Numbered from the stretch's first letter, positions 33,101 to 60,100 are shown. The stretch: DNA of 60,962 nucleotides from Candidatus Omnitrophota bacterium (GCA_028713415.1 JAQTOI010000003.1:1-60962); one strand, 5' to 3'. The notes: generated by a model not told the origin, from the sequence alone. Made by a program: numbers and translations.

Positions 33101-36100
33101 CGCAAATAAAAAAGAAAGCGATTACGAAGGCCGGCACCATGCCACTGTAATCGTTGCCGGGATTGCCATTCTGGCACGGCAATATAGCAAAAAGTTAATT
33201 ACCGATAACAGGGACGAAGCGGCTTTAGTTGCTGCCTGCAAACGTAACTTTGCTGATGAGGTAAGAAATAAGGAGACAGAGTGGCTATCCATCGATAAAC
33301 TTCCGATAGGATTTTATGATTATCGCTTAGTCGGAGAGGTATTTACTGATACTGGCCGAAGCGCAATTTCTTCTGAAGGTATTGAGCGGGTTGCTTTTGG
33401 CTTGAGATTGGTCTTCTTAGAAGAGGAAAGTTATCGAGTTAAATATACGCACAATTTAAATACGGGAGAGGAGCGCGCAACTGATTTTATTGTCCGCGTT
33501 GATAGCCAGGGATATATCTATTACGCCGGCGAAGAAACAGAACTTTGGCCGCCAGATAGGCAACTGAGGATATATACTTACGAGAAGAGTTTGCAGCTAC
33601 AAGGCAGCCCCCGGCCTGTTATCTCTGATTATACAGTTAAAGTAATTTCTCTCAAGCTGGCTAAAAGGGCAGGCTATATGCCTTCTGGCAGCTCAGCTGT
33701 CCAAAATACTTTCGGCACCCTCAAAACCGCAAACCGCGCGCCACCGGCTCGCACAAATTCCAATTTCCAAATTCCTCCGGATTACAGTTCTTTCCCTGCA
33801 GAAGTAAGCAGCTCGTCGGTAAATAATCTTAGTATTTTTAAATGCCGGCCGGGACAATGCGTGAAATGTTGTGAGATTCCTATAGGAGTAACTATCCCTG
33901 ATTTACTGCGTATTCGGGAATATTTCCTGCAAAGAGGCATTGATAAGAGTTTTGGTAGATTATTTCAGGAATTAATTACTGGTTGGATAGTGTCGTTTAG
34001 TTTTGAACAATATATTTATGTAATTCCTAAAATAAGACACCCCTGCCCATTTATTAACTATCAACAAATGAGATGTCATATTTACAGCCACAGGTTTATC
34101 GCTTGTCTTGGTTTTCCAGAAATGGTATTAGCGGCCCGCACCCAAGGCCTCGCGGATGAGGTTAATAGCAGAGCATTGCAACAATTAGTCGAAGAAGGTA
34201 TAGATTGTGTTGATAGGGCAATGATAACTGATTCGAGAATTGAACTGATGAATAGGCTCAATTCACTGGCCTGGGACGAATATCACTTTACCGCAAGCCT
34301 GCTTGGAACCGAGATAAGTTATGCAGAATTAGAACATGCTAAGCTCACAAGCATTGACGGGATAAGGCAATATTTTGTCGGATGTGGGATGGAAAGGATG
34401 GCCCTAGATAAGGTTAGACAATTAAATAACCCAGATAATTTTGCTGCTTTGTTAGCTAAAGCTTCTCCTTATCTAAAGCGGAGGCGTTTGCTAATGGAAG
34501 ACATTGATGGGGCATCTTCCAGTTCTTCTCTGCAAAATAATCGCGGCAGCCTCAAAACCACGCAACTTGCACCGCCATATTCAGCTCATAGTCGACAGTC
34601 CATAGCATCTTCAGCAGTATCATTTGAAGTCAAAGAGCTTTTGCAGAAAAGGAAGAAAAATCGTAGCGAGTGGGTATTTATTCTTAGAAACTTATCCAGC
34701 AAATTTTCTGAAGGCACAGCCACAGCCAGCCGCATCGCAGAAATCTCTGACGGCAAATTAACCGCACAAGGCGTGCGTTCCGCCTTGGTAAAGCACTCTA
34801 TCATCTACGAAGAAGCAGGTATGGTGGGGGGTAGGCCTTCGAAAAGAAATAGCTCGAATGCCCACAAAAAATCCAGTTCTCCCGTCTTCTTTTCGAACAA
34901 AACCGCAATTCACGCACCATTCGTTTTGGCGCTTATTGAAAAATCAATCCGCGACAACATTGTTTCTTCTGCGGTTGTAACGCCATCGAAGGTATTTGTA
35001 ACTAACGAAGCCTATCCCGTGCCTCTTTTTAGATCAGGTGATATTCGAAACGATGATGTGTATAAATTACCTATTGGAGAGATTTCCAGCACCCGCTATA
35101 TAAGAATAGCTGTTGGAAGAAAAGTAATTTACATAGGAACGCATCATCATGGTGCGTATTTATTTACTTTACTTTCGTATATCGAAGGTTTGATTGATGG
35201 CTTAGAAAATTTCGCGCATATTGATTTTAAGCGGCACCCAGACAATTCTCTTATCACCAAAACCCCACCATATTTCGTGGCGAGCGTAGATCTGGATATC
35301 GTTAATGATCTTGAGAATCTAGAAACTACACAAAATATGAAAGATCTTCTGAAATGTGTGGCTGATGTGGCTGGCGAAGCTAATGTAATAATGATTTTTG
35401 TTTCTCCTGGTTTCTTGGATAAAAGACGAGCCATAGGAACTATTGTTCCTTATTTCGTAAATTCGTTGTTTGCGAAATTAGGAATTAATCCAGCTGATTT
35501 AATTTCAGAGGCTCAACCCGCAGGATATAGATATGCTTCATTCTTTTCCAGAGGACGATTGGTATTTAACAATGCTGGGCTAAAAAGAATAGCTTTTACT
35601 TCGAAGCTGTCGATTGACGCCTTAAGAGAAAAGTTTACAGCAAGTTCGCCTTTAAATACTTTTGACAACCTCAACACCGCAATTCATAATTTACAAGCTA
35701 ACATCGTTTGTAATAATGAGTTAAATGTTAAATCCGGCAAAGCGGAAGCATCTTCTGCTGCGGTAATAGGTTTATCGGGAATTGCTATCGTTTTATCCGT
35801 ATATTTGTTGATAAAAATAAATAACAGGGTTCAAGAACGGAACATAATCAAAATCGCTTTTATGAACGAATACGCGATAATTAAAGAATTAATCGGTAGT
35901 GAATTATATGATGAAGCAGTCCAAGCGCTACGGATTTTGATTGATAAATTGGAAAGAGGAATTGATGGTATCTATAATTTTGGTGATTTTGCAAATAGGG
36001 GAATCTTAAAAGAACTCTATTTTAAATTAGGATACTGCCTATGGTTTTTAGCCGAAGAAAAGTGGGATATGCGGGAATATTTATTAAAGGGCGCTTTAGA

Positions 36101-39100
36101 GGCTCTTAATAAAGCAGATAGCAATGAATCTTCTGCAGCGGACCTGATAGATTTAATACAAAAAGATTTACGAAAAGAATTGCAAAGCGCGGAAATAAAT
36201 TCTATAGAAGGCCAATCTTCGGGAAACACATTAATTAGAGGCTTAGAAGTTGTAGATGATGAGAGCATATGCCAAAAGAAATTTGAGCAATTTGAATATG
36301 CCGCAGCAGCAAGAAATAAGCAGTTAGCAGGCAAATGTGCTAAATTTTTGTCCGAAAGAAAATATTTTGGCCCGCAATACGGATTTCCAGATTCTAGCCA
36401 TAACACTTTTTTCCCTGCAGCCATTGCTATCCGATATGTAAAAGTAATGATGATGTGCCGCATGTACCGGGAAGCGGAAGATATGTTAAGGTTGATAATT
36501 TATAAAATACAAGATACTACGGCGGCAATAGATTTAGTTAATATCTATTATGATTTAGGTTTATGTTGTTATCGAAATAATTCTTTAAATGAAGCTGAGA
36601 TTTACTTCTCAAAAGTCCAGGAGCTTACAGGACAAGAAATTTTCTTTTTAAAGCAAATTCAAGAAACGCGAGGCAAAGGCAAAAATGCCAGTAGCTCGGC
36701 AGTATACAAACAGATACAACCAGTATTTTTAAAAGCTTTCGGCAGCCTCAAACACGCGCAACTTGCGCCGCCACTTCACGTATCAGGTAGCACGTATCAC
36801 GTCGCACGTTTTAAAGACCTGTTACCTGTTAACTGTGACGTGGGACAGGATAATAGGGGCAGTTCGCCAATCGAAAATACTTCCAAACTGCAAAAAACTC
36901 TTTACCAACTCACCTTAAACGCGCATCAGCCCACAGGAACGCGCTGGTCGCGTGTGCATTACTTTGCTACTTACCTTCCGGTTTTAGTGTCTTTGCTCGA
37001 TCCTGAGTTACGCAATATACACGGAAATAATCACCGTCCAATAAGGTTTAATTACAGCCTTTCTTTAAGCTTGTCCAAAGAAATTTCTACTTATACAGCC
37101 TCGATGTTAAGCATTATGAAAGGGGGTCCGGAGCAATTTAGGTGGGATAAACAAAAACGGCGCATTGGAGAATTAGTCGAAGAGCAGAAGCTGGACGAGC
37201 ATATCGCGTTATTGCTTAAGCCGTATAGAGAATGGACGGATGCTGACGTGCAGATTGTCGGCGTTCATCAATACTTTCTACCTTCCGACACTAAATACGA
37301 ATTGTGGCCGCAGTTTACCGAGTTCTATCAAAAAGCAGCTACCGGCAACGGCTTATTCAGTAAGGATTTAAAAGATGTACAAGGTTTTAGTGATAGCGAA
37401 AAGCTAACGGCTAAGGCGATGCTTTTAGGAATGACCCTTGTATTTTTCAACCGTTTTATTTTCGCCAACGGGCCGGCAGTTTTATCCGGTGTGCCGATTG
37501 ACAATAAACACCAGCCAGAGATGTTTGCCGATGACGAGGTTATTTATGTCGATGGAAACCGTAAGTGTTTAGAGAGCATGTACTTTGAGCGCAAGGTCGA
37601 TTTTACTTCTTACCTTAAAGTAGAAAACGAAAACCATTTTATAGCTCTTGCCTCAGATGATGCAAGCTGTAGCAGATTAGTTTATGAAATGACCAAGGCA
37701 ATGGCAATATTCCCTAATTTAATTGCCTTAGTTTCGATATCTAATGAATTAGCGATTGCCGATAGAGAATCTAAAACAGTAGAGGAAGTTATTGTTGGCG
37801 AGCGTGCTAAAGGATACGGTAAATATCATAAATTAGAAAGCCGCAGCGGCCAGATTGATTTTAGCATTTGCCCTCATATTATTTGCGCGGCCATTGCCGA
37901 ACAGCCCGGGCTCATGGAACGTTCCCAGGACGTTGAAAGCCAAATCATTCTTGCCAAGGAGCATTGCTATGATGCCTACGGAATCAAAATGCGCTGGGTT
38001 TGGAACGCCGAAGGTAATATGGACGGCCTATATTCAGGCTTGCTTAAAAAGCACGGCATTGAACTTGCTTATGTAGGAAATGACCACTTTGAAATAATAA
38101 AACAGGCAAACGGAATGGGCAACCTTAACCGTATGCAGCCGGTAACCTTTCAAACCGGCGTACCGCGCGCGAGATTAGTTAAGCTTTTTGGAAATTATAA
38201 CAATGAGTGGAAACCTTTCTTTTATAATCCCGACAGTCCTAATAATGAGGGCTTTATCTGGTTTAAGAGAGGAACAGGACAGGTGGAAAGATTCAGGCGC
38301 TACCATACTAATAGAGGCAGCGCATTTAATGGCTATCAGCGGGCGATGATGTTTAAGCTCTGGCAGGAATCAATGGGGACGATTCTCTGCCCCTATACTC
38401 AGGACGTCCGATATGTAGATTTTGTAGGGTTAGGCCCATCAGACCAGCAGGCTTTAGTTATGGCCTCTCATATTTTAGGTTGCGGTAACGTGCCTAACGC
38501 TCCGGCAACTGAACAATATGGTAGTCATCCTCAAGTAAAAATTGTTAGTGAGTTTACCGATATGGAGAATTGTATTCGCCGATATAGAGGAAAATACGAT
38601 GGTTCAATGATTTGGTGGTGGTACCTGCATACCGTAATCCACAATGGTATAGCTAATACAGTAACTGCCGGTGAAGTTATTAATCTTGCCCACCACCTGC
38701 AAAGACAGGGCGAGCCATCTTTCGCTCACATAGCGGTCCTTCCTTTAGGCACCTGGCATGGCGGAGCAAGCATTAGAGATTGGATAGGAGGTTGTTATGA
38801 ACATTCTCTTCTTTATGGTTATTTAAAGGCGGTTATAGAAGGTTTACTTTCTGCGGGAATTCCTTATTGGAGGAGTAAAGGCGCAACTGCTCAAACTGAT
38901 CAACTCTGGGAGAGAGGAATTTTTCTTGGCGCCCAAGTCAGTTGTTATGCCTGGCATCTCGTCCGTAATCCCATAAAAGACCAAAATCCCCAAGTCTTTA
39001 CGCAATTATTTTTCCATCACCTGGCTTGGACGATAGAGCGTGCTTGGGAGCTTGGGTTTAGCGTGGTGCCTCCTTTAGTAAATGGCCACGTGGCAGGATT

Positions 39101-42100
39101 CTTGATGAACGTAGAGGGAGTGCAGATTAGGCGTGATTTAAAAGTTTCCGGGCGAGCTGCCTTGCAAGGTTTGTTAAAAGCAAAACAGTCTGCGAAAGAA
39201 AAAGGACCAACACAAATTGTTTCATTGGAAGAGATAGCTACATTGATAACATCGCGTTTTACGCCCATAGCGGAGAAATTAATTTCAGGTAATGCCGGAG
39301 CTACGGATGAGGCAAGACAATTTTTTAATTCTCTCAATGTTCCGCAGCTTAATGGAATCATTGAGGCGGCCTTAAGAATTGGAAGCTCACCGTTAGATCT
39401 AAACGAAAGTCTCCCCAAAACTTTAATTGCCGTGCTGGAAGATGAGATTAAAAATGACGGTTTTAATTTTTTGCATCGATTATTTTCCGCACCATATTTA
39501 AATTTAGATAGATTGATTTTGCTTTCACCTCAGGCTATGATTCGCACATTAGCTAGCGCAATCCGCGCCGTTACAAAAAGTACTCGTCAAGAAGGACTCG
39601 CAAAATTATTCAATTACGCAGAGCAGTTTAGCGTTAGCACTGATTTTGCCGATAATACTTCCGTGCATAACGTAGATGAGGCTGAATTTATAAGACAAAG
39701 GCAAGATGAACAAGATCGCGGGCGTAAGACAAAAGGCGGAGGAGGCGTTGTTTTCGAAATCGCACCGCTGAAACTTTCTGAACGAGGAGTGGAATTCAGG
39801 GTGTATGTTCCCGGCGCACAGTGGGTTTCTGTTGTCGGAGACTTCTTTAAAACTATAAGCAAAAAAGACATAGCGTGGGGCTGGGATCCTGCCCAGTTTC
39901 CTATGGAAAAAATTGGTGCTGATATTTGGCAAATAACCATACCGCTTGAGCCATCACTTGATGTTTACGAATATCGTTTTGGTATAGCTACAGATGCAGG
40001 CGGCTCTTGGGATGAGATACGGCCTAACGCAGACAAGAATTTCCGCCTTAAAGTGAGTCAACCCTATGCAGCCGGGCAAACAACGTTTCCCGGCCGCATA
40101 AAAGCAGGCGCTACTATTTACGAAATGTTTCTAAGGGCATTTGAAAACTTTGGGCCAAAAGAACACATGAAAGAGGGAATGAGTGTAACTACCCAGCGCC
40201 TTAGTTCTGAGCATGTTGATATAGTTCAGATTATGCCGGCCCATTTATTAGGTATTGAAGCAAGAAAGGGCGAGCCTGGTTCGCCATATTCCATCAGGAA
40301 CTATTTTCAAATTCAAAGCACAGAGACCGCGCCAGGAGGTTATCTTGGCGAAGAGGGCCTTCTTTATTTGGTTAAGAGTTTTGAAGAAAAAGGTATAGAT
40401 GTAATATTTGACGTAGTGCTTAATCATACAGCGCCTGATCATTTTCTTATCAAACATATGCCTCATATGTGGGTTAGAATCGCCGGCCAGGCAGTTGCGC
40501 CTAACAATGCTTTTGCTGATGTACGTCAATTGAATCCGCTAAACCTGGATACGAGGGATTTCGCGCTTGTGTATATGGCCTGGCTTATTGCCCGTTTTGG
40601 CGCAAGGGGTTTTCGCGCTGACGTAGCGGAGTTCTTGCCTATAAGTTTCTGGAATGAATTGTTCGCCAACCTGGAAAGATTTGAATCTTGGTTTTATCCG
40701 AATAGGCAACGCGGCAATGGCTTACTTAAAATCATGGAAGGAGGAGTGGAAGATAAAAGGAGTGAAAAAGATGACCCGCGTTATATCGGTGAAGGAAGGT
40801 TTAACTGCGCTTATAATTTTGAACTGCTTAATGCTATAGAGGCCTATTCAAAAGGAGAAATAGACGCGATAGCCTTAACGCAAGTTTTAGCGGCGCAAAT
40901 AAATTCAGGTATACCGCATCTTTTACAATTGAGTAACCATGATTGGAGCCTTTATCATCAGCCTACTGTTGCACGCTTAGGCAAGCTTATACGGCCATTT
41001 ACCTTCATTCAACTGACCGCAGGCGGACCTAATAATTTATCATTTTTATTCAACGGAGATGAAGTTGCCTATCCTTATCCTGTAGATCATCATGGTTTGC
41101 ATCATTTGAATTTAGAAGCAGGTGACAGAGGGTATTACCTCTGGCGTCTTAAGGTCATTTCTTCTGTCCGTTTGGAAGAATTGCAGCCATTAGCGCAAGT
41201 TCAGCCGGAATTTTTACCTGATGTGTTTTCTGATGAAGAGGTAAAGAAAACTACCCTTATTTACCGCAAAGTTATCGGTCAAAGACAATTTTACTATTTG
41301 GTTAATCTGGATAGGGAAGGCAAAGAGCGCTGGCTTCCAATCAGCGGGCTTATCGGCAGAGAATTAAGCGATGATGAGACATTGTATGATTTTGTCGCTG
41401 AACGCAGCCTTAGCCGCGGTAATGGCTGTGCCTATAACATTCGTAAAGGAGAAACGCCTGGCGAAAACAAAGAATTTATTGTTTTAGCAATCGATGACCC
41501 GCTTATGCTTGAGGTGAGAAAAAATACGGTGCCGCAATCAGCGCAAACCGCTGCCAGTTCGCCGTCTGTCCAGCCGCAACCCGAGCATAAGCCGGCGGCA
41601 TTGTCAACACGACGAGGGAAGGCTTTCTGGGAAGATCGGCAGCTTATGAAAGTGATGCTAAGTTTTGCCGATAAAAAGAAACACTCTAAAGAACATACAG
41701 CGGCATTGGTCCGTGAAATTGAAAGAGTGGAAGGTGTAAAGCTCAAGATATTCGACGCTGTCAGCGTGGGGCATCCGAGACAAGGCATGCCTTCGTGGAG
41801 AAGGCGCATTCATCAATTTGAGATAGTCCGTGAAGATAATGGACAAATGTTGTATCAAATACCGAAAGACCCTGCTTTTAGGGGAATGATAACTGTTAAG
41901 CGTTACATCCCGGAAGGTATTCTGGATACATTTTTTGAAATCAATCCGCATTCTCCCACGGCTCACAAAAGTCCCCTAAGTTACCACTACTTTATTTGTC
42001 GTAGTGATGACAATGCTACCTATTACGATGAAGGATTGCAAATATTCGAACAAAATTCACCTTATATCAATGTTCAATGTATTACAGAAGAGGATTTTAT

Positions 42101-45100: not shown

Positions 45101-48100
45101 GGGAATTACTATCATTGCAGATATGGCTTTATATCCGGCAGATAATAGCGCAGATGTTTGGTGGAACCAGGGGCTCTTTTTGCCTGAATGGGCCGCTGGC
45201 GCTCCTATTGATGAAGCTTGCCTCAAAGAACAGAACTGGGGGTTACCTCCTTATGCCTGGATAAGAAAGTTTGCTTCGGTCTTACGTTACGAACTTGCCA
45301 AGATCAGGCGCCAGCTATCGCATGCCCGGGGCTTACGTATCGACCACATTTGGGGCCTTTCCCAGGAACATCTTATTTACAGGGATGTATCGCAGGGTAA
45401 GCAATCAGGTTTTGTTCCGCGCAGGGTCCAGGATGCCATCCACCAGCAGGCAGCTATTATCAGCGCGTTTTGCGAGGAAGCACGCAAACATAAGGCATTT
45501 CTTGTCGGTGAGAATATCGGCATACGTAATCCGGCCATCGTCGATGCGCTCTATCAGCATTGTAGCGACGAAGGTAATTTGCTTCTTACTAATGTCACCG
45601 GCTGGCGGCCTTCACGCGTTAATAACCGCGATATTATCGTATATCCGTATGATTTTACTTCTGCAGCCTCCGGTGATACCCCGATGCGTTATGCTGAGCG
45701 TATGCGCTTAAGTGATTACCAAGATGCTTGGTGGGGCCAGACCGCGGCATTTCTTGCCGCGCGGGGCGTCTATGTTGATAGGAACAGGCATACCTTTAGG
45801 CAAATCGAAGACTTAGTTGAAGCTTGCATTACCGGTATCACACCGCGCGGTATACTTCCCTTTACCTGCACGACAGTCGCGCGTTTCCTGGGCCTTAGAA
45901 ATTTTATGTTTAATATTCCCGGAGAACAGACTCCGCATCTCTGGTGCGGTAGGCCGGAAGTTTTTCTTGAAGACCTCATCAGCCGTATTGAACAAGAGGA
46001 CGCTAAGTTTAAAGAAGTACTTACTGCTGCGCGAGCCGGCACAATAGAAGTTGAACATTTCGCCAGCGTACACGGCGTAGCATCAAAAGCCCTTCGGGTC
46101 AAATTCGACAATCAACTCTATGGTATTATTTACAATGATAGCGATAGGGAAGAGGAGGGCAGAGTAGACTTCTATCTGGATCAGTTGGGATTCGATTGGT
46201 ATAAGCCCTTTGCCTTACGTGATGAAATTAGCAGACAACTCTTTGTCTTTGTTCCCGGTAAAAACTTACATGATTTCGGTATCATGTACTATAAGCTTGC
46301 CCCGCACCAGGCGCATATTTTCCGCCTTACGCATACCAATCGGGATTCTTTGTGCGTTGATTTGCCGGTTATTGAAGCGCCGGCACCAAGAATTCTTTTT
46401 GCCGGAGATTCACATGCCCGCGGATTAAGAGGCCTTAGTGAAAAACGCATCTGGGAGCCGCTAGCCTGGGGTTATCGTGGTCCGCTGTTAGAGTTATTGC
46501 GCGCAAATGGTTTTGATTATAGCCCGCACGGCCCATTTAATGAGCCTGACAATCCAAATGTCTATGATCGCGCGCACCTGGGCTGGGATGGTATTTATAC
46601 GCATACGGTATATCCCAACCACCCTACTGCGTCGTACGGTTTATACGAACTTATGCAATTGCACCTTGAAAATTCTATGCCACTCCCTAATCCAGAGCAT
46701 TCCGCTGTTTTAATAGATATCGGAACAAATGATGTTTCCGATCTGAATGTAAATATTGCTGAGTCTGTTCATTACCTTGAAGAGACAATTAAATTTATTC
46801 ATGCGCACGATGCGTCAATTGACGTTTATGTAACTCATTTATTGCGCCGTGGGGACAGCATCAGGTCAGAAGAATTTAACAGCGCGGTTGCGGAGATGAT
46901 AGAGCGCCTTAAGAGCGAGCAGCCCGGTAAACAAAACATCTATCCGGTTGACATGCGCAAATTGCGCCAAGACCCCGATTGGCAAACGAAATTTTTTGCA
47001 GATGATTGGCATTATAACGATGAAGGCTTCGATGCCGCGGCTAAAATTCAGTGCGAGGCAATCCTTGATGTGATTAACCCGATGTGGCGGCCTGTTGCGT
47101 CATCTCATGCCAGTTCCCCTATAACCTTTAAAGACTTGGATTTGAGCACGCAAGAGGTCATTGGTGAAGGCGGGGTCGGCCGCATCTATAAAATTAATGG
47201 CGGCAACCATCCTTACGCGGTAAAAGTATACGGCGCGACAGAAGAGGGTCTGGCTGGTTTACCAAAACAGGCAATTGAATTGCCGAAATATCTTTTACGT
47301 ATATCCCGATACGCCAGGCATCTGCCGGAAAATAAATTTATGCCTCACTATTATGAAGAGGGCTATTGCACCCTTGTTAAAGGCCCTAAAGGCGATGAGG
47401 TCGCGCCGGCAGGCAGATTCTTTGGCGCAAAATATCCATTCGTACTTATGGATTATATGCCGGGAACCAGCCTTAAGAAACTGTTAAAAGGCGGCAACAA
47501 AGATATAAATATCGCTGATAATTGGCAGCACAAGATTGTTGCGGCTTTAAGTATTGCAGAGGCGCTTACTCAGTTTCACGCCGCAAAGCTTATCGTAAAG
47601 GAATTAAAACCAAGCCATATATTGCTCAATGTACAAGACAGAAGGCTTAAGGCGTGCCTTATTGATAATGACGGTGTTGTGCCTTATCCTTATAATTGGC
47701 AGGAAAATCCGTGGGGATTGCCGGACATAGTCAGGCTTATTCGTACGCCGGGTTACTGCGAAAGCGTCGAACCTTTTACGTCTGCTTTAAGCAGAGAAAA
47801 AATGCTCAAATCTGCAGCAACGTTTTTTACCCCTCAATGGGACATTTACAGTTTCGGGGTAGTTCTTGTTTGTTTATGCGGCTCAATCGATTTTAGAAAC
47901 CATATAGAAGCTTCGAATTGGGAAAAAGCAGCACGCAGGATAAAACATGAAATTGCACAAATAGCTGCTCAGCCTGATAAAGAAGACCTGATGATGGTAA
48001 AAGCTTGTTTTCAGGTGGCGGCAAAGTGCATTTGTCAGAGAAGCGATCGTTTTGGGAGCATGGCTTTTGTGTCAGCCGCGTTAAGAGAATGTTTAAAGAT

Positions 48101-51100
48101 GGCCAAAAACGTGCTTCCTGGAGATTCACCGTGCGCATCAGGCCCTGTTAGTTCATCTGCTTCAGCCGGCAAACCGCAAAGTGTGCAATTTTACGGCTGC
48201 GGCACGCCTGAACGCATTCTATCAGCTAAAACATTGCCCAGCCCTTCGGAGTACCTCAGGGCGCCGACACATGGTGGCTTCAGCCCTCTGGCTTGGTTCG
48301 ACTACGCTCACCACGAGTCGGCAAGGGCGTCGTTGGACTCCAGCCCACCAATGGCAAATGGCAAAGGGCGAATGGCTGATAGCAATTCAAAGACGTCGCC
48401 GCAACGCGGCTCCGGCCCCGGAAGTATCCGGGACGTCGCAAATAGCTCCAGCCCCGCATCTGGCTCTGAGCAAAAAGCAAAAGAACAGCTCATCGTCCAG
48501 CTAAAAGAAACGCTTTTGCAGGTTCTTACCGCAGAATCAATAGCTCGGTTTAACGAAGATGATTTAATCGGTTTGGCGCTTTTTACCTTGGAGGACTTGC
48601 CGAGAGCGCAAAGGATAGAGCTTATCGGCGCGGCATTAGAAGCTCACAGTATGGACCGTCAAAATGCGGAAAATATCCTCATTGCCTTGTGTGACGCAAA
48701 TTCTTGTGGAAGGATAACGCCTCTTTTTGTAGCTGCAGGTATGCCTGAAGTTTACGAAAGTTCATGGCCGACGCAGAGAGAGGACACCTGGATAGGAGAA
48801 GAAGCACGGGACGTAATTAGGATGGCAATGCTTAATGTTTTTACTCAAATATTTAATTATTTTCATATTTATCCGGATAATCAAAAAACAGTTGTTGATG
48901 TCGGAGCCCGGCGCGGATGGCTTGAGAAATTATTGGGCCAGGAATGGCAAAAGGTTATAACCTTGTTTGACAAAAATGCTTTTTATCTTCTCGAAGCCCG
49001 TGAACAAAGCCTAGGAAAGAATTATATAACCGGCAGTGTTTATGAGTTGGCAAAATACTTACGCGATATAAATTTAATTCTTTCTCTGGATACATTTGAT
49101 ACCTTTTTGGATTTAAGCTGCGCCGCAGCGCAGTGCGCGGCAGCGCTTTCTCCGGCTGGATTAATTATTGTTGTCAACGGCCCGCCAGTTCAGATTGAGC
49201 CGCTTGTCCAAGAGTTGGCTGAACAGGGAATAGTTTATTCTCCTTATTGCGTCGAATTTTTTGATGCGGAAGAGAAGCGCCTTGCTGCTGAAGAAGCTTA
49301 TCATCAATGGAAAAATCTTCCGGAAGATACCCCCTCAGATTTAGCACGGAGTGTCTTTAGCCAATTTTTAGATATCCGCGATAGGTTAGCATTCGATAAA
49401 GATGAGTATTTTCAGGCTAAATTGATACGCCTGTTAAAAATGGAAGGCTTAGAAATCCTGCTTCCTTCGAAAGCTGCACAAAGAGGAATAATGGGAAAAT
49501 ATATAGGCGCAAAAGAAGAAAGGCACAGAAAAGTTTCGCCGACGGCAAATTGCTTTACCTTTTACAAAGGCAGCGGGCACTTGGGATTTGACCCTAAGAT
49601 TCCCTTGGGCAAGGTTGTTGAAGCGGTTGGCTTAAGAGTGGTTATGGCAAGAAAACCTGAACCGTCTCAGCCAAGCAGGAGGCCTTTAAGCTCAAGCTCC
49701 CCGTCAGTAAATATGACTAATCAAATACTCCAGCCCAACTTTCCTGCGGAGTTCGCCGGCCGCGTAGGTTATCAGATACTGGTTGACCGTTTTGCTAATG
49801 GTGATAGCTCAAATGACCCAACCGTTCTTGACACAATGGACGATATTGGGGGCTGGCACACCAGAGATTGGAATAAGCCTTGGTATGAGTATGACCAATG
49901 GGAGATGGACTGGGCAAAAGCAAACCGGAAACACCCCTTAGAGATTATTTGGAAACGCCACTACGGAGGGGATTTACAGGGCGTATTGGACCGGTTGGGT
50001 TACTTAGCAGAATTAGGTATCGGTTTTATTTATTTTAATCCGCTTTTTTGGGCGCCTTCACATCATAAATATGATTGCCGTTCTTTCCATCACATTGACC
50101 CCACCTTTGGCCCTGACCCCAGGGGTGATAAAGCCTTGATGTTAGAGGAAAACCCGGTTGTTCCTGCTACTTGGAAATGGACCAGAGCTGATAAATTATT
50201 TTTAGATGTTATTGAAGCAGCGCATTCAAGAGGAATTTTGGTAGTATTGGACGGTGTGTTTAATCATACTAGCCGGTATTCCTTTGCCTTCGCAGATATT
50301 TTGAGCAATAAACAGGATTCGCGGTATGCCAGCTGGTATCAAATTACGCATTGGGATAGCGAACTGGCCGATGGTTTTGACTATTGGAAATGTCTTGGTG
50401 ACAAATCTTTGCCCGAAGTCAGGCGTGACGGGGATTCTTTAGACTCCGCTTTTAAAGAATATGTGTTTAATAGTATTACGCGTTGGATGCAGCCGGGAGT
50501 CGTCGCCGGACGCAAGCGCCAAGGCGTTGACGGCTGGCGGATTGATACAGCAGATCGCCTTCCGCATGTATTCCTTAAAGAATTACACGCAAAAGTAAAG
50601 TCATTAAATCCTGGCGCGATAATTATCGGAGAAGTCTTGGCTGTTAGCCCGGAGTATCTTCGAGGAGACGAATGTGATTCCTTAACAAACTATTCTTGGC
50701 TTTTTGCCCTGCAGGAGTTTTTCATCAACCAGGAGAGCCGCATCTCACCCAGTCAATTTGCAGGGCTTATGCGCGATTTGTTTACCGCCTATCCTTCACA
50801 AGTACAAGATTATATGTTGAACTTCTTAGGTTGCCACGATACAGAACGTATTATCAGTGCGATTCGCAATCCAGACATGGCTCGACGCGATTGCGGTAAA
50901 CATTACAACAATTCAAAAGTTCTTCATAACCCCAGTTATGACATTGGGCCTGCAAGCGAGCGGGATATTAAAATCCAGCAGTTACTTGTTTTATATCAAA
51001 TGACCGCACCCGGTATGCCGGTAATTTATTATGGAGATGAACTGGGCTTACCCGGAGCAAATGACCCTTGCTGCCGCGTTCCCATGCCCTGGCATATTGT

Positions 51101-54100
51101 TGATAGAGGCGCAAATCCATTGCACAGTTTCTATAAAAAGATGATTGCTATGCGTAACCAATCGCTTGCCTTGCAACGCGGGACATATGAAGTAGTGCGC
51201 ATTGATGATGAGCGGCAGCTCTTGGCATATCGCCGTAGTTACGAAGACGAAAATGTTTTTGTAGTGATAAATAATAGCGATAGCGAACGGATTGTTTCAT
51301 TACCGCTCAATTCAATATCTGGTATCCAACCTATTGTTAATCTCGTTGATGATAGGCGATACCAGGTGCAGGATGAAAGAGTAACTCTTACTTTAGCTGA
51401 CCGCAGCGGAGCTATTTTATCTGCCCTAGGCTGTCCAGCTAAAAGCTCATCCCCCTCGGCGCGAGATTTATCAATGGCAGTACATTTTTACGGCCGCGGC
51501 ACGCCTGAACGCATTCTATCAGCTAAAACATTGTCCAGCCCTCAGGTAGCCCCCCGCGCCCCGCCGCAGGAAAACGCCGTACCTAATCGTTCTTTTTTCA
51601 ATTCCTTAACTTGTGCATCTTCCAGTTCCTTGGAAGGGGCGCTTCGCAATCAAACTAACCGGCCGCAATGGCGCAATCAAGTTAAAAGAATCATACAGAT
51701 TACTGGCTGGACCGGTACGCTTATAAATTTGGCGATTACCCTTCTTTTCCTACCACAGATTTTACCTCTCTACATACCCTTAGCATTGGAAGGTTACGCG
51801 TTAGCTCTATATTTCTTCTGGCTGAGCCGGTATAAAGATTCCCGTTTATTCCAGATGGCGATGGCTGTTATCGGCCTTGCGTTTTTCTTTGGAGTTTTTC
51901 ATGTGGCATTACCGTGGGTTATTCCTGCCGTCAGAAACAGCGCAGAACGCACATTTTCTGAAGTCGCATTGATTATCGCGGCAAGATTTGCTCTTATGCT
52001 CCCTGCCATTTTTGCTTCCAAATATTTATGTACAAAATATTTTAAGTTTTTAACACCCAACCCGAAAGCTAATTTTGAATTCAAGTGGAAAGAGGAGCTA
52101 TGGAAATCATTTAAATGGGCGTTTGTCGGCGGAATAATCGCGGGTTATTACATTTCCTATGTAGTATACAATTTTCTTTCGGTAAATATCGATATCGGAT
52201 ATACAAGTTATATCCCGTTTTTGGAGGGAAATCTTTCCATATTGGCATTGAAGGCCGCCTTTGACTTGGGTCTGGCTACTATTTTCGTGCATCATGTCCT
52301 TACGTTAGTGGTGGGCCCGGCTTTTTGCGAAGAGATGAATCTTTTAAAGGAATGGGGTAAGGGCAGTGGCAGCTTAAAGAAGTACATTAAAAAACAATAC
52401 ACTATAGCGTCCCCTTTGAGTTTCTTATTCTGGTATCCGGCTGTTTTTCTTCTTTGGTATCTTTTCCCGCATTTATCACTGGGCATGATACTTACGCAGG
52501 CGGCATTTACCGTTGTTTGGACCGTAATTTATGAACGGATTGTGCAATTCTGGAAGAATGGAGATAATTTTGTAGATGTCGAATACAAAGAAAAAGCTTT
52601 AGGCAAGCAAAGAGCTGCTTCTTCACCTTCGGAAGATTTGTCCGGCGACAAGCTTGGGGCAAGTCTGGAAGCTGCCGCTTTATCATCGAAATTTAGCGGC
52701 ATAAATTTTTCAGAAAAAAAGTTCAGACTTATTGATAAAGTAATGTTAGAGATTGACGCAGAGATCCGGCAGGAGCATCCTGAAAAACTCCTGGCAGCAA
52801 ATCTCGATGTTCAATATCAAAGAACACCGTCGCTATACGCTGTTGCAGTAATTGAGGAATTAGTTAAAAGAAAATTGATGGCTTCGCACAATAAGTTCGG
52901 CGATGTGGGCGCAGGCACGGGCGCAATGCTTATCTTGGTCGTTGCTTTGACCCAGGCCGGGGAGGCAATAGGCATAGAACCTGATGGCTACCTGCGCCAA
53001 AAAGGCCGGGAGGCAATATTACGCCTTCAGAAAATGGGCGTTATCGATGAATCCCGCATAAGGTGGATTCCAAAGGGCTGGGAGGATTCGACCGATATAT
53101 TAGGCCAGCTCGATGCCGCATATTTATATTCTCCGGTTCAAGCCCCGGATCACTGGGCGATTGACGCCAAAGTGATACGTAGTTATATGAGAACAAATGC
53201 ATATCTGCGTGTTGCCGGTGTCGGACAAAGCGGTCCGGGCGCACTTAATAATTTTTCTTGCCTCGCACAAACTTCAGCTATCGGTTCGGAGGCCCTCACC
53301 AAAGCCCACCGCGTAGGCGAGTTTTGGTTAGGCCGCCAAGCGCCGGGCGCCAGCTCGCCAAATCATAATGTGCCTCTTTCAGACGGCATGGAAGTTTTTA
53401 GAAAAAGGGTGCAGCAGGCAACAAGAAGAAACGCGGAAGGGGAGTGTGGGCAACAAGAGAAGATAGATTCTTTGATTATGCAATTGCTTACTGGCAGCGA
53501 GAAACAACACTATGATGCGCTTGGGGAGTTAGTTGCAATCAGCGGATCTTCGCGTAAGCCTTTTTTCGGGCTGGGTGATACAAGCCTTAGCTTTAAAGTT
53601 CGCAAATCCCTGGGTGAAGCGTTAGGCAGCTTGGTAGGTAAAAGAATGATTCAGGTCTGCAGAAGAATTTTTAATGACGAGCGCATAGCTGGTGAAATCC
53701 GCCAAACTGCAGCAAGGTATCTGTTTAGCCTTGGTAAACGCGTTAAACCAAGAATGATGCGCACCAGCTTCCCGGTAGCAGCCAGGTCCAGCCGTTATAA
53801 TATAGTATGCGTATGTAAAGGTAATCTTTACCGGGGTCCCTTTTTGGAATTTATGATACGCGATTACCTAAAAAGAAGGAAGTGGGGAAATTATTTTTTA
53901 GTTCGTTCTGCCGGAACTTCGGCGTGGATAAATAGTGTAGATCGTGAATATGAACTAAAAAAGCAAGGGGAAATACAGCTTAGCCTCTATCGGCAGGTAA
54001 GCGTGACGGAATCGATGCAACAATTTTATAGTGGTATTTCTCCTCGCAGGTATTTGTCTGAGCGTATGTATAAAACTGCAGATGTAATATTAACAGTTAG

Positions 54101-57100
54101 CCCGGATATTAGCGCCGTCAAAAAATCTATTTTAGTTACCGAATTCCTGCCAGAATACCACCGGTATTTTCGTCAGCCTATTCCCGATTCCGTATGCCCC
54201 GATTTCAATCTGCTTATTGATTTATACTCCAGCTTATTAAGGTCCGGTTTAGGCAAGGCTATTCAGCAAGCGGTTGGAGAGATAAAGCAAGCAAAAAAAC
54301 AATACAAAGGAAATGAAAACAACAGGGATCAGGCCTCAAAATTAGAAATTGACCGCGCCAGCTCGCCGGAACAAAGAAAGCCCCTGGTTATCTGCGGTGT
54401 GCGCGTTAGCCCAGATATTGATGAAGAAGGAATCAAAAAATGGATAAACAGGATTTTAGGTAAGTTTCCAGTGCAACAGCATGATGTTTTTATCGGTTTT
54501 CCATCGCATCCTTACATAAGCGATATAACTATTGAAGGATTGCCTATTGGTTGCGTGGTTGGCTATAACGGCCTAACCGGTAATAGACAAGAGCGCGAGT
54601 CAGATTATGTTATCTATGATCATAAAGGCACTAGAAGTGTATTCTTCATGCAATATGGCTCTGCAGTCGATTTAGATAAGAGAGCGGTATCAGTTGGTTC
54701 GTGGCGGCTTATTGTTCCTTTGTGTGCGGAGGCGATTGCTGTTTGCATGATGGATACAAAAAGTTTATTGTGCGACGCTGCGTTCATTCCGATATACACT
54801 TTAGATAGGCATGGTGACATGTATACACAGAGATTTTATAGCGCTATAAGGAAACCGGTTATGGGTATGGATCAAGGGTTGCAGAGAACTTGGCGTGTTA
54901 TTACGCCAAAAGGGATATATGATTATCAAGGCCTTTACAATTGCGCAGTTGCTTTAACTATAAATTCAGACGGTCGCAATACGCTTGGAATTTTCCGTGA
55001 AGCGCAAGCCCGCGCGAGAAATCCAGAAGATAAAACTTCAAGCCCATCAAGCTCTACTATGGCTGACCCTTGGCACCCAAATGACCGGGGTTATGAAGTA
55101 ATGGCAGAGGCTTGGTTTAGAGCTTTAACTGACCCTGAGGCCGCAGTAATCGCTAAGTTATTAACGGGGACGTCGGCACGCTCCGCGAAAGCTGCGCAGA
55201 CCTCCAGCCCCGTGCCGGAAAATACAGGAGGGACACTTCCCGACGGGATTTTATCACCCACACCTTTAAAGCAATTTGTTTTTAATCCTGCAGAGCATCA
55301 AAACGATAAGCGTCTTGCGGGGGCTGTGATAGAGTGGTTCGGCGTTGCGGGAGATTTTAATTTATGGAAGCCGCGCGAATGCGATATCAGCAGAGTTTCC
55401 CAACAAGGTAAATACGAGATAACAATCGCTTTATCGCAAACAAGCCGTTATAAGTTTGTTATTAAGTTTTTGGGTAAAGCGCACCTTGAGTGGTTTACTG
55501 ATATTCATTCTCCCTTTAGAGATAAACGCGGCAACAGTTTTGTTATAGCTCAACCGTCGGAAGTTTGCCCCCATTCATATTATAGCGGAGGAATCGCAGT
55601 GCATAGAAGTAATGTGCCTGGGCTTAGCGCGGGGCAGGTGGTAATGAGTGTCCGCTTAGCTTCAGATATTATAAAAGATAGTCAGCAACTTTTAGTAGTA
55701 AGGAGAAGGCTTTGTGAATGGTATGATTACCAAGGGCAGCCACCGGTGAGGCACAAACACGATTTATTGCACTCAATATTACTGAGTAAGCTTGATTGCG
55801 GGCACGAAGTTATGCAATATTACTTTAAGAATTTCCCATGCGCTCTATATTTTGCAATTAGCGATGCAGCCGACAATGGCCGAGACAATATTGATGTAGA
55901 AGGAATAGCGGTAGTAACGTATAGGCCAGAAGGCATATCGGTAGATTATTTAGAGATTAAGCCGCAAAATAGGCTCGGCCCAGAACGATCACGCTTTGTC
56001 GGTGTAGGCCACCAGCTCATTTTTCATATTTTCCATAGTTTACTCAAAGAATCTCACGGTTTTCGTGCTAACCTCAATACTGATACTTTACTCAGCGATG
56101 GAATTGTAGCCGGCCAGTGGTACAGCACCGCTGAAATGGAGGAACGCGTGGTAGCGCGCGTAAGAAGGACATTGAAAATTTTTAATGAAAACGTTTATTC
56201 GCGCGATTCATTAGGAAATCAAGCAAGAGATGTATTGGCAGGGTGCCTAGATGACGCGATGCGATTGCGCACAGCGAGTTCGTCCCTCCTCAACAAGATA
56301 AGAGTTTCTCCACAAGGACATGCGATACTCTCATCGGCCTCTTTAACGTTTAACACGCACGAAAGAAGCGCATTAAGCTATAGGCTTTTTAGAGATCCTC
56401 ACAGTAGTAGCAGCCCAAGCCAATTGCCGAATATACAGAAGGTTGGCTCAAGTCCTCAAACCCCTGATGCTTCAAGTCCTCTTGACGGCAATCAAGCTCG
56501 TCAGCCCAACGCCGGGCAGTTGCCGCACGTAGAATTACAGTTAACCAACTATCAAGGAAGATACAAAGTGGTTCAACCACAACCCCAAGCTTTAGCCGCC
56601 AATGGCCAGCTCAGGGGCCACCTGGACGGTTTATTAGGCCTGCTCACCACGTATATGCCAAACGGCCCTCCTTTTACACTTATAATGACTGAAAATGCCG
56701 CAGGCATTGATCATACCCGTACTTCTCATATCCTCGATACTACCATAGTCGTTACTGCACCGGCAAGCAGAAGATTGACCGTACATTATTCATTTTTTGA
56801 TTTTCCTATTACAATCCAGGCTGATATTCTACGTATCCGTTTAAGTTACTTAAATGGTTTAACAGAGCCATATATTTATCAAACCGGACTTTCTCATTTC
56901 GCAACATACCGCAGAAATAATCCCCAGTCTCCGGATGAATTAACCAAATTTTTAGAAGAGGCAGCAAGATACGGTTATATATTGCCGGATATGTACCGAA
57001 TTACTTTAGAACAATTACAAAGGCTTCATTTTGGCGACTTAGACTTCCAGCTTTTTGTTGCCGAAGGAAATCATTTTCAGGCATACGAGAAACTTGGCAG

Positions 57101-60100
57101 CCATCTTATAACTACAGGTGGACAGCATCTCGGTACATATGTAGCAGTGTGGGCGCCTAATGCTAAAAGCGTCTCGGTTATCGGAGATTTTAATCAATGG
57201 GGTGTTACCTACAGCCATGTACTCTCGAATTATTCAGGTATCTGGCACGGTTTTGTTCCCGCACTGACTAAGGACAAGCGTTATAAGTACCGCATAACAG
57301 GCGCTGACAACGTAGTGCGTGACAAAGTAGACCCCTATGCTTTTTTTAATGAACATCCAAGCCGTGGCTATGAGCAAAGCACTGCATCACTTGTTTGGAA
57401 TTTAGATTACCAATGGCAGGATGCTGCTTGGATGAACGCCAGGCGTGCAACACAGTCGTATGGCAAACCTATTGCTATTTATGAAGTTCATCTTGGTTCA
57501 TGGATTCGCAGGCCGGATAACAGCCAACTCAGTTATCGGGAGATTGCTGAGCCGTTAGCTGAATATGTGAAGGGTATTGGTTTTACTCATGTTGAGTTCT
57601 TACCCATAACAGAACATACCTTTGAAGGTTCCTGGGGTTATCAGGTGAGTAATTACTTTGCGCCAACTTCGCGTTTCGGCACCCCCCAGGACCTGATGTA
57701 TCTTGTGGATTATTTACACCAGCAAGGTATTGGGGTTATTCTTGACTTTGTCCCTGCGCATTTCCCTAAGGATACGCAAGGATTAAGCCGCTTTGACGGA
57801 ACAGAGCTTTACGGCCATGCTGACCCGGCTAAGGGAGAGCACCCGCATTGGGGCACCTACATATTTAATTATGGCCGCAATGAAGTGCAAAGTTTCCTTA
57901 TCAGCTGCGCTTTGTTTTGGCTGAAAAAATATCATTTTGACGGCTTGCGTTTTGATGCTGTTGCTTCCATGCTTTATCTTGATTATGGTAGGGATGGAGG
58001 GCCTTGGGTTCCAAATAAGTATGGTGGAAACCAAAACCTTGAGGCAATAGAATTTCTATGGAAGATAAATTCAAGAGTTTTCAGCGAAGTGCCCGGAGTT
58101 TTAACTATTGCTGAGGAATCAACTGCCTGGCCCGGGGTAACTGCGCCGGTGGCCATAAGCGGATTGGGATTTTCCCTAAAATGGAACATGGGTTGGATGC
58201 ATGATACGTTACAGTTCTTAAGGACGGATCCATTTTTCAGGCACTATGACCTGGGCCGTTTTACCGGTATCTTAAATTACAGCTTTGACGAAAGATTTCT
58301 CCTTGCGCTTTCTCACGATGAAGTAGTGCATATGAAAGGTTCATTGCCCAACAAAATGCCTCAGGAGGATTGGAGGAGATTTGCCAATGTGCGGCTGCTC
58401 TTTGCCATCCAGTATGGTTTTCCCGGAAAAAAACATATGTTTATGGGTATGGAGTTTGGCCAATGGCGCGAATGGAACCATAACCAAAGCCTTGACTGGT
58501 TTCTTTTGGATGATTGGGATTCCTGGCATGCAGGTATGCTTAGATTAGTCAGTGATCTTAACGGTTTTTATCGAAGAGAACCTTCATTATATGAACGGGA
58601 TTTTGACCGCAGGGGCGTTGAAGTAATTAACTTTGATTCTGATAATACTGTTTTGTGTATTGGCCGCAGGGGTAAAAATCCAAACGAGATGCTTATTTGG
58701 GTTTACAACTTTACTCCGATGGTGAGATACGATTACTGCGTAGGTGTACCTTGGCCTGGCATATGGCAGGAGGTATTTAATAGCGATGCTCAAATTTACG
58801 GTGGTTCAGGAATCGGCAATCTGGGCGGTGTAGATGCCCGGGAGGTTCCTTTCCACGGACGTCCTTATTCAATAAATCTTACGCTCCCGCCATTAGGGGC
58901 GCTCGTGTTCAAAGTAGTACGCGCCTCCAGTTCTCTGTTTTCGACAAGGCCGTTTCCGGGCTCCAGCCCCCCAATGGCAAATGGCAAAGGGCGAATGGCT
59001 GATAGCAATTCAAAGACGCCGCCGCAACGCGGCTCCGGCCCCGCGCAAAAACCATCAAGGCCTCTGATTATAGAAACCGTAGTGGTTGATCAACATGAAC
59101 TTGAGATACATAAACGGGAAGAGCGTTTAGATATTGTGGGAAGAGCCGTTAATGTTCTGCATACTAAATCGCCTTACTGCGGTTATTTTGGTTTTATGGA
59201 TGACAGAGGAAGGGCAATCGTCCTGCACTATTTTATTATTTCTTTTATTGAAGACGTTATTGTAAGGGCGCTGGAAAACAAAGTTCCTCTTATTTGGGAG
59301 AAATGGGAAGGCAAACCCGTACAAAGATTGGTATTAAGAAGAAAAGTCGGAAAATTTATCCGAAAGACACTATCCAAGTTTACTTTGGATGATATTCATC
59401 AATTTCTTGTAAATAGTACCATTGACCATGAAGTAAGGCACATTGAAATAGAACGAGGCCATTTTATCCCCAATAAAGGATTTGTTAGCCATGTAATTGC
59501 CGATAATGGAGAGGAATCCAGAGCCTTTATCGCCAAAGTCGCCGGAGAAATAGATTGTATGTTAACGGGTTATGCCGATAAATACCCTCCGCAACTTGAA
59601 TTCCTGGTCGACATTGATATGTTAGCATCCCCCTCGAATGCGGTAGGGTATTTAGCTTCAGCTATGCTGATGAAAGAGCTGGTTGGCGTAGATTTTGTAA
59701 GTTATGAGCAGTGGGATGAGATTAAAGCTTTCGCGGCCATCGAACAATTACGCTCTTGTTTGGATAGGTTATTATTGGGCGGATTTGATGTAACCATGTT
59801 CAGGTGGAAAGCCGCCATGGTAAAAGAAAAAATTGGCGCAGTATCTAATAGAAATGGGCGTTCCTCAAGTCCTTCAACCCAACGAAAAGCTGACGCTGTA
59901 AAGAGTAAACAGATCATAAATCTAATGAGATTTAACAATCGGTTGCGGCAGGATAACGCCAGTTCACCCCTAAGCATTCAAAGTAGCTATTATCCTGCAA
60001 CTCTGTTTGGAAAAAACGTACCTGCTGACCAAAGGCAAAGAGAAAATTTTATGTTCTATCTGCGCCAGGCCGGAAAAGAATTAAATACGGATTTTGATTT

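Follow-up and report, generated by a model that had tools for sequence, protein, structure and literature searches.

Two short repeats, R4 and R5, recur in the 60,962-nt stretch of DNA analysed here (GCA_028713415.1 JAQTOI010000003.1:1-60962; hereafter the window), almost the whole of which is one open reading frame (ORF) that fuses glycogen and α-glucan enzymes with kinase-, methyltransferase-, phosphatase- and hydrolase-type modules. These repeats are probably recently copied in-frame linker cassettes, of about 27 (R4) and 19 (R5) codons, that act as polar spacers in a multi-enzyme giant gene. The near-identity of their copies is best read, judging from the sequence, as reflecting recent copying and not conservation of the encoded peptides. 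The locus is present in two runs (X1 and X2) of a landfill metagenome. The ORF, the four copies and the segments that define them are as follows.

141 to 60893, plus strand: giant ORF of 20,250 codons, with a single terminal stop and none internal; holds all R4 and R5 copies
48189 to 48245, plus strand: R5a, 57 nt or 19 codons, FYGCGTPERILSAKTLPSP; directly after the serine run that ends the kinase-like module
48246 to 48337, plus strand: spacer between R5a and R4a, 92 nt; its ends carry the soft edges of both repeat pairs
48338 to 48420, plus strand: R4a, 83 nt, (D)SSPPMANGKGRMADSNSKTSPQRGSGP; from an SSP site to GSGP
51486 to 51542, plus strand: R5b, FYGRGTPERILSAKTLSSP; 10 aa past the SSSP that ends GH13 module 2
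58961 to 59043, plus strand: R4b, (G)SSPPMANGKGRMADSNSKTPPQRGSGP; 15 aa past the canonical GlgB C-terminus '...LTLPPLGALVFK'
48199 to 48236, plus strand: exact core of R5, 38 nt, identical to 51496-51533
48348 to 48395, plus strand: exact core of R4, 48 nt, identical to 58971-59018

Two pairs of near-identical copies

Both pairs are about 97% identical in DNA. R5a and R5b are mismatched at 2 of 57 nt, both changes being non-synonymous, and R4a and R4b at 2 of 83 nt, with one synonymous and one non-synonymous change. The four differences are T/C, C/T, A/C and T/C; because three of the four alter an amino acid (C/R, P/S and S/P), there is no sign that the peptides have been preserved. When up to 3 mismatches are allowed, the window contains exactly two copies of each core; none would be expected by chance, as 100 shuffles gave no match. 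The four copies share the strand and reading frame of the giant ORF. In one sample each copy is present at single depth, as the core unitigs of X2 have about twice the depth of their flanks. The original prediction had located these repeats from the sequence, and its coordinates, lengths, two differences per pair and shared frame all proved exact; translation likewise confirmed the peptides that it quoted, LDSSPP and PGSSPP for R4 and TLPSP and TLSSP for R5.

That the copying is recent, and independent of the flanking modules, had also been proposed, and both points are borne out. Every other internal paralogy is far older, the other duplications in the gene having 32-55% protein identity, or at most 90% DNA identity over short stretches. 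Each pair drops to background identity on one side and retains weak similarity on the other. The right edge of R5 is soft (15 of 30 nt match between the spacer side of R5a and the flank of R5b, P about 0.005), as is the left edge of R4 (13 of 21 nt between the spacer side of R4a and the flank of R4b, P about 0.001), and the opposite edge of each pair is abrupt. Since the two soft edges lie at opposite ends of the spacer that separates R5a from R4a, the joint between the kinase-like and methyltransferase-like modules looks like a full R5-spacer-R4 cassette.

Linkers between unrelated modules

All four copies are found in inter-module linkers at real module edges, and the edges defined by homology coincide with the positions of the copies. 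The joint that leads from the kinase-like to the methyltransferase-like module has R5a, followed by R4a 92 nt further on, while R5b comes after a GH13 domain with Malt_amylase_C and R4b after GlgB. The adjoining modules are these.

47109 to 48095, plus strand: kinase-like module (Pkinase), upstream of R5a; 31% identity to the Omnitrophota protein P0164; starts directly after SSP 15658
48426 to 49658, plus strand: methyltransferase-like module, downstream of R4a; sub-threshold Pfam match; 25% identity to P0213; bounding SSP sites at 48447 and 49695
49707 to 51479, plus strand: GH13 module 2, upstream of R5b; 47-51% identity to GH13 modules in three long proteins, P0121, P0122 and P0162
57009 to 58949, plus strand: GlgB-type branching-enzyme module, upstream of R4b; 50-58% identity to ordinary GlgB proteins
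59046 to 60890, plus strand: C-terminal module of 615 aa, downstream of R4b; no known family

The Pkinase domain scores 41.2 bits against a cut-off of 31.7 when the module is scanned alone, and both P0122 and P0162 are named as Omnitrophota proteins. As the original prediction had stated, the flanking modules are mutually unrelated: self-BLAST finds no similarity between them, though GH13 module 2 and GlgB are both members of the alpha-amylase superfamily. In an exhaustive HMMER search with aa 15500-16699, none of the best 150 of 2,516 matches reached the linker holding R5a and R4a; these matches covered query positions 160-443, 621-1011 and 1019-1200, and not 501-611. A word-indexed protein search with aa 15700-16500 found no relatives. 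The linkers are also without a match in Pfam, NCBIfam or PDB (Pfam and PDB at E<=10).

R4 and R5 were rightly described as linker sequence that starts or ends at the tripeptide SSP. R5 comes after SSSA or SSSP and terminates at PSP or SSP, and R4 runs from SSP to GSGP, so that both can be seen as 'cap-to-cap' mini-cassettes, as can 19 other short stretches (8-80 aa) that lead from one SSP to another. In Omnitrophota relatives, the homologous modules of GH13 and kinase-like type have serine-run caps at the equivalent positions, with linkers beyond them that are unrelated to R5; in P0121, for example, SSS is counted 24 times vs 2 expected.

The same linker is covered by a second reading frame. 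At 48181-48504 an ORF of 107 codons in frame +1 has exactly the extent of the R5a-spacer-R4a linker; most likely it results from the composition of this linker, which is rich in GC (58%) and poor in stops.

The SSP motif at module joints

SSP is by far the most enriched tripeptide of the giant ORF, with 61 sites vs 4.7 expected (12.9-fold); examples are at 4620, 13350, 15261, 44328, 47112, 49695, 51447 and 58962. The sites use all six serine codons, so the signal is at the protein level. None of the 61 lies inside a Pfam domain (13% of the protein; P about 2e-4). They stand 4-28 aa ahead of the starts of the GT5, MBL, HAD and GH77 modules and 11-35 aa beyond the ends of the HAD, GDSL, GH13 and GlgB modules, and thus adjoin nearly every recognisable enzyme module, Pkinase included. 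From its placement, SSP is a candidate module-boundary or processing motif. Moreover, 7 of the 11 families of direct repeats in the gene touch an SSP site, where a random interval would be expected to do so in about 7-12% of cases; joints thus re-use sequence as a rule in this gene, with R4 and R5 as the youngest case.

Other direct-repeat pairs at SSP joints are listed below. They have 77-90% DNA identity and look like older re-used joint cassettes, with strings such as 'THPTTPRLRRTRMIADG..GSSPLD', 'LFFTPSVSASI', 'P[LI]LYIGKQxRxISSP' and 'SSPxSxxxxQGGP'.

8405-8516 and 9302-9413: direct-repeat pair at SSP joints
9234-9281 and 12294-12341: direct-repeat pair at SSP joints
24188-24233 and 31676-31721: direct-repeat pair at SSP joints
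6987-7025 and 29208-29246: direct-repeat pair at SSP joints

Eight 'junction boxes' (..SSPxxxxFGSLKTAxxAPP..), about 1 kb apart and with 63-80% DNA identity, were also observed in a part of the ORF that is almost without Pfam hits, and a similar string (FGSLDMAILAPP / FGKLKFANKAPP) is found in the long relatives P0122 and P0121. R5 was considered as a member of this family and rejected: a hidden Markov model of the eight boxes recovers those eight and a few weak partial matches, and not R5a or R5b.

24781-24835: junction box
29113-29167: junction box
31711-31765: junction box
32776-32830: junction box
33691-33745: junction box
34522-34576: junction box
35658-35695: junction box
36735-36772: junction box

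How the cassettes may have been copied

The full unit, R5 with the 92-nt spacer and R4, would be the one at the joint between the kinase-like and methyltransferase-like modules, with the R5 half at the joint after GH13 module 2 and the R4 half at the joint after GlgB. Part of one linker has probably been recently copied into, or converted with, two other joints, by a mechanism and in a direction that we infer. Non-allelic gene conversion, or microhomology-mediated duplication, between joints that were already alike on one side would be the likely mechanism, and R4 itself may have been built by slippage of a 7-nt unit. Once in place, the cassettes would act as polar unstructured spacers between folded modules, and the SSP caps, not the cassette bodies, would be the constrained part.

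The composition of R4 is in keeping with such a role, as no other 29-aa window of the protein is as polar (86% of its residues are polar or promote disorder); that of R5 is unremarkable. A single-sequence AlphaFold (AF2) model of the junction is poor, with a mean predicted local distance difference test score (pLDDT) of 41; the linker has the lowest values (28-39), and R4a is modelled as coil, which supports disorder only weakly. The cassettes are probably flexible spacers, with the SSP caps as the constrained element.

The inter-module linkers of modular megaproteins, such as the linkers and docking regions of polyketide synthases (PKS) and nonribosomal peptide synthetases (NRPS) and the linkers of cellulosomal scaffoldins, are short, rich in Pro, Ser and Thr, fast-evolving between species and homogenised within a gene. 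R4 and R5 resemble them as short low-complexity connectors between folded modules. They differ in that the flanking modules here are unrelated enzymes, so that flanking homology exists on one side of each tract only. Duplicated linkers alone would be an ordinary by-product of recombination in a long modular gene.

Several points weigh against this reading of R4 and R5 as recently copied spacer cassettes. Classical gene conversion requires homology to the left and to the right of the tract, whereas in each pair one edge has none. Only four substitutions are available, so the argument that purifying selection is lacking is a weak one. More diverged R4-like contexts exist outside the window in both X1 and X2; the family is thus larger than two copies, and its donor cannot be named. 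Disorder is argued from composition and a low-confidence single-sequence model (mean pLDDT 41). The order of the segments across the exact cores is not proven, and in X2 a different contig of 12.5 kb enters the R4 core. Finally, the host is most likely an Omnitrophota bacterium of the landfill community, an assignment taken only from the names of the nearest homologues of its modules; the window contains no marker genes, and the GTDB species set does not include the source genome.

Assembly across the exact cores

The runs X1 (about 3x) and X2 (about 8.5x) were compared with the window as contigs and unitigs assembled independently at k=31. The original prediction had warned that an assembler could mis-join at the repeats, and with good reason: exact cores of 38 and 48 nt are too long for contigs at k=31 to bridge, and X2 shows no depth over the left flank of R4b.

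58732 to 58934, plus strand: left flank of R4b, 203 nt; zero depth in X2 and X1 and held by no indexed run; encodes the canonical GlgB C-terminus in frame

In X2 the R5 core is a separate unitig at 19.6x, with exactly two in-flows (8.4x and 8.2x) and two out-flows (6.3x and 8.6x). The R4 core, also a separate unitig (16.3x), flows out into the two expected right flanks (8.4x and 7.7x). Its in-flows are the spacer (4.9x) and a contig of 12,561 nt (8.9x) from outside the window, which was looked for inside the window and is not there. Flank depth around the cores in this run is 7.7-8.6x. The end of the 12,561-nt contig reads in frame as '...RELQGESSSP', after which come about 36 nt that resemble the left edge of R4, and the contig terminates in '...CGCGAACTTCAGGGTGAAAGTTCCAGCCCC' and the R4 core. 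An X2 contig was also observed that shares 48425-48454 with the window and then continues in frame as 'VPGKLMIPDV' ('TGTGCCGGGAAAGCTTATG...'). The 12,561-nt and 'VPGKLMIPDV' contigs imply either that there are more R4-type linkers outside the window or that the samples are structurally different here. Upstream of R4b, there are two possibilities: the two samples differ in structure, or the GlgB-R4b join is a chimera of strains or loci.

It could thus be proposed that the repeats are real and the path through the window is wrong at one core at least, the segments running A-R5-D-R4-C-R5-B-R4-E or the GlgB-R4b join being chimeric, in which case 'R4 after GlgB' would not exist in any single genome. 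At k=31 the contigs are interrupted at each core, and either Eulerian path keeps the frame. The stretch at 58732-58934 lacks depth in a run that has 8.5x elsewhere, and the R4 core has about twice the flank depth in X2, yet one of its in-flows is the 12,561-nt contig. However, the cores are only 38 and 48 nt long, with private single-nucleotide polymorphisms (SNPs) in each copy within 10-25 nt of its unique flanks, and k>=55 or read pairs would normally resolve them. X1 has an exact 83-nt unitig, 58918-59000, that joins the flank in the window to R4b, and the unsupported stretch is a natural GlgB C-terminus in frame. X2 is moreover colinear with the window and almost the same in sequence, from about 200 to 58731 (about 58 kb) and from 58989 to the end; it has a few other short gaps, in unique sequence, and about 7% of its contigs were outside the comparison. 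On these grounds a wrong path is considered unlikely.

R4 and R5 are the only places in the 61-kb gene where short-read assembly is ambiguous, and R4b coincides with a real discrepancy between samples. Claims on the length and module order of the giant gene consequently depend on resolving these repeats. Elsewhere, at 7149-7234 and 39880-39952, X2 has variant contigs of lower depth with clustered differences (7 in about 80 nt), which suggests a second related population or paralogous sequence.

Peptides as linear motifs

Another explanation is that the cassettes are functional short linear motifs, that is, docking, modification or cleavage cassettes for the kinase- or phosphatase-like modules or for a protease, kept alike by selection or concerted evolution. 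In its favour, the strongly selected SSP delimits both cassettes, R4 contains S/T-P sites, and in R5 the pattern of residues is hydrophobic and a short helix is predicted; the literature on giant genes suspects post-translational cleavage and knows no sites. Cleavage points of giant proteins are not known according to the 2023 preprint (West-Roberts et al. 2023, bioRxiv 10.1101/2023.11.21.568195). On the other side, the three peptide-altering differences include C/R and S/P swaps, and neither cassette is found at the homologous module edges of relatives. Codon-degenerate searches with 12-residue pieces gave nothing for R5 in JGI metagenome contigs and nothing for R4 in GTDB species genomes. 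Pfam and PDB hold no match to the peptides, and the ORF has no peptidase domain at E<=1e-3. A role as linear motifs therefore seems doubtful.

A wider proposal would treat the joints as a code, in which an SSP cap, an optional GSLKTA..APP box, a 7-nt tandem and the next cap together form a polyprotein-processing or boundary signal as well as a substrate for module shuffling. R4 and R5 would then be the cassettes exchanged last, and the R4 core would be the breakpoint of a difference of about 12.5 kb between landfill populations. If so, recombination at linker cassettes would be a way for giant genes to acquire, drop or rearrange enzyme modules; this is a tentative proposal and an improbable one as a whole. 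In viral polyproteins, cleavage-site motifs recur at module boundaries. The SSP caps, not the bodies of R4 and R5, are like these sites in that a short motif recurs at the module boundaries of one long product. The difference is that no protease domain was found in the ORF here, and relatives have serine runs or hydrophobic hairpins at the equivalent positions. In any case, the SSP caps at 61 boundaries, with the re-used cassettes, offer concrete and testable candidate boundaries for dividing giant proteins into units.

Heptanucleotide tandems

The original prediction had seen a 'half-tandem' inside R4, which is a genuine 7-nt tandem, AATGGCA x3.9. It is one of several short tandem arrays, mostly of period 7, 14 or 16.

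48350 to 48376, plus strand: AATGGCA x3.9 in R4a, 7-nt tandem with 85% matches
58973 to 58999: counterpart in R4b
7041-7070: short tandem array
29177-29200: short tandem array
31774-31806: short tandem array
32841-32871: short tandem array
36777-36809: short tandem array

With a threshold of 17 of 21 self-matches and periods from 3 to 18, three tandem periodicities occur in the ORF and no others: lag 7 (with three arrays, those of R4a and R4b among them), lag 14 (two) and lag 16 (one). By chance about 0.01 is expected per lag, and none of 200 codon shuffles attained the counts seen at lag 7 or lag 14. The arrays of period 7, 14 and 16, and a further array found with Tandem Repeats Finder (TRF), are all located just downstream of an SSP or a 'GSLKTA..APP' box, and their heptamers differ in sequence. 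The arrays fit an origin of linker sequence by slippage.

Such arrays could also be thought of as a slippage-prone switch, in which a 7-nt tandem, on gaining or losing a single unit, would put the sequence out of frame and end the giant protein early at that joint, giving mixed truncated products. The restriction to lags 7 and 14 with a single lag-16 array, the position just downstream of joint motifs and the fact that 7 is not a multiple of 3 all agree with this. But typical contingency tracts are very different from these short, imperfect arrays, which have 3.4-4.4 units and 79-94% matches, and no length variants of them were seen in the X1 and X2 contigs, although contigs hide rare variants. 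Phase-variable tracts of heptanucleotides occur in contingency loci of Haemophilus and Neisseria. Like phase-variable simple sequence repeats (SSRs), the arrays here lie in or beside coding sequence and have a unit length that is not divisible by three; unlike them, they have only about 4 imperfect units, and the contigs show no variation in length. A switch of this kind is thus very unlikely.

Mobile-element and nucleic-acid signals

The weakest alternative holds that R4 and R5 are a miniature mobile element or a signal at the level of DNA or RNA, whether an in-frame insert similar to miniature inverted-repeat transposable elements (MITEs) or Rickettsia palindromic elements (RPEs), a diversity-generating retroelement (DGR) pair, a structured RNA or an internal promoter or terminator. 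What speaks for it are the short near-identical copies in unrelated contexts, the additional R4-like contexts in the metagenome and an imperfect direct repeat of 10 nt that flanks R4 (CTCCAGCCCC / CTCCGGCCCC); this last merely encodes S-S-P and S-G-P. No inverted repeats were found at R4 or R5, and their RNA and DNA folds are not beyond those of shuffles (z-scores -1.8 to +1.2). The substitutions in R5 weaken a predicted stem (-14.4 vs -7.0 kcal/mol), breaking pairs with no compensation. No Rfam family matches either repeat, and promoter and terminator signals are not in excess on the coding strand. The copies are all on one strand and in frame, and the outside contexts also read in frame as SSP-type linkers. 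The exact R4 core is absent from GTDB species genomes, JGI metagenome contigs and viral contigs, and the exact R5 core from viral contigs.

Three candidates were rejected on these data: a structured RNA element, for lack of a fold beyond shuffles and of an Rfam match; an internal promoter, terminator or start site at R4 ('MANGKGRMAD'), as the coding strand has no excess of signals; and a template repeat and variable repeat (TR/VR) pair of a DGR, as the differences are not adenine-specific and the window has no reverse transcriptase domain. RPEs are in-frame inserts in unrelated genes; they are palindromic and structured, and have dozens of copies genome-wide, at non-coding sites too. R4 and R5 share with them the form of short near-identical DNA that sits in frame in unrelated protein contexts and adds a peptide between functional parts, but have no palindrome or fold, and only two copies each in 61 kb, on one strand. 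Mobility, which the original prediction had listed beside duplication and gene conversion, is thus not supported in the sense of an autonomous or MITE-like element, and the alternative as a whole can hardly be entertained.

The giant gene and its class

In its content, the ORF that carries the cassettes is like the Omnitrophota multi-enzyme giant proteins: it has at least 10,000 uninterrupted codons and is tiled by distinct enzyme Pfams, with a sugar-metabolism cluster and methyltransferase, HAD and kinase modules. The Pfam modules comprise a GlgA-like starch synthase GT5/GT1 pair, methyltransferases, an MBL/beta-CASP hydrolase, a HAD hydrolase and CBM48, and also GH77, a GDSL-like module, Pkinase, GH13 with Malt_amylase_C, a low-molecular-weight (LMW) phosphatase (LMWPc) and a complete GlgB. 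Large parts of the ORF are without a known family, and Pfam domains cover 13% of the protein. The closest homologues of individual modules that carry names are all proteins from metagenome-assembled genomes (MAGs) of Candidatus Omnitrophota, several of them fragments of long multi-enzyme fusions. No synteny of module order with relatives was found, as they have only single modules in common with the giant ORF.

Giant genes have been described in Omnitrophota, with landfill metagenomes among the sources (West-Roberts et al. 2023, bioRxiv 10.1101/2023.11.21.568195, which is also the reference for Archaeovorins; Nielsen & Lui 2026, bioRxiv 10.64898/2026.06.07.730766). One class, the 'multi-enzyme metabolic cluster', includes starch synthase, GT1, methyltransferase and HAD (Nielsen & Lui 2026, bioRxiv 10.64898/2026.06.07.730766). 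The giant gene of the window is a member of this known class. Like the others, it exceeds 10,000 codons without interruption and encodes many different enzyme domains in series; it differs in that Pfam scans detected no C39 or S8 peptidase, HEAT or dockerin domain in it. A term search of the main text found no mention of linker cassettes or of an SSP or serine-run junction motif in either preprint (10.1101/2023.11.21.568195; 10.64898/2026.06.07.730766), and the repeat analysis of the later one is confined to tandem nucleotide repeats (10.64898/2026.06.07.730766).

Other features of the locus and its relatives

An Omnitrophota MAG fragment, P0055 (1,654 aa), fills its own contig of 4,965 nt with a PGI-like module, GlgB, an unknown stretch, a transmembrane (TM) segment and the start of a nucleotidyl-transferase. 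It is without SSP motifs, which implies that the fusion of glycogen enzymes into giant ORFs recurs in the phylum and that the joint motif is lineage-specific. The relative P0122 has hydrophobic hairpins of the 'ALCALPVMFGDSLLALGFLALGM' type at module joints in place of serine runs. In the window, three clustered hydrophobic TM-like segments occur at 51720-52019 (aa 17194-17293), about 60 aa downstream of R5b and within a 600-aa region of no family. At 60879, 12 nt before the stop of the giant ORF, the X2 contig has an additional T, which would alter the last few codons and the position of the stop in that population.

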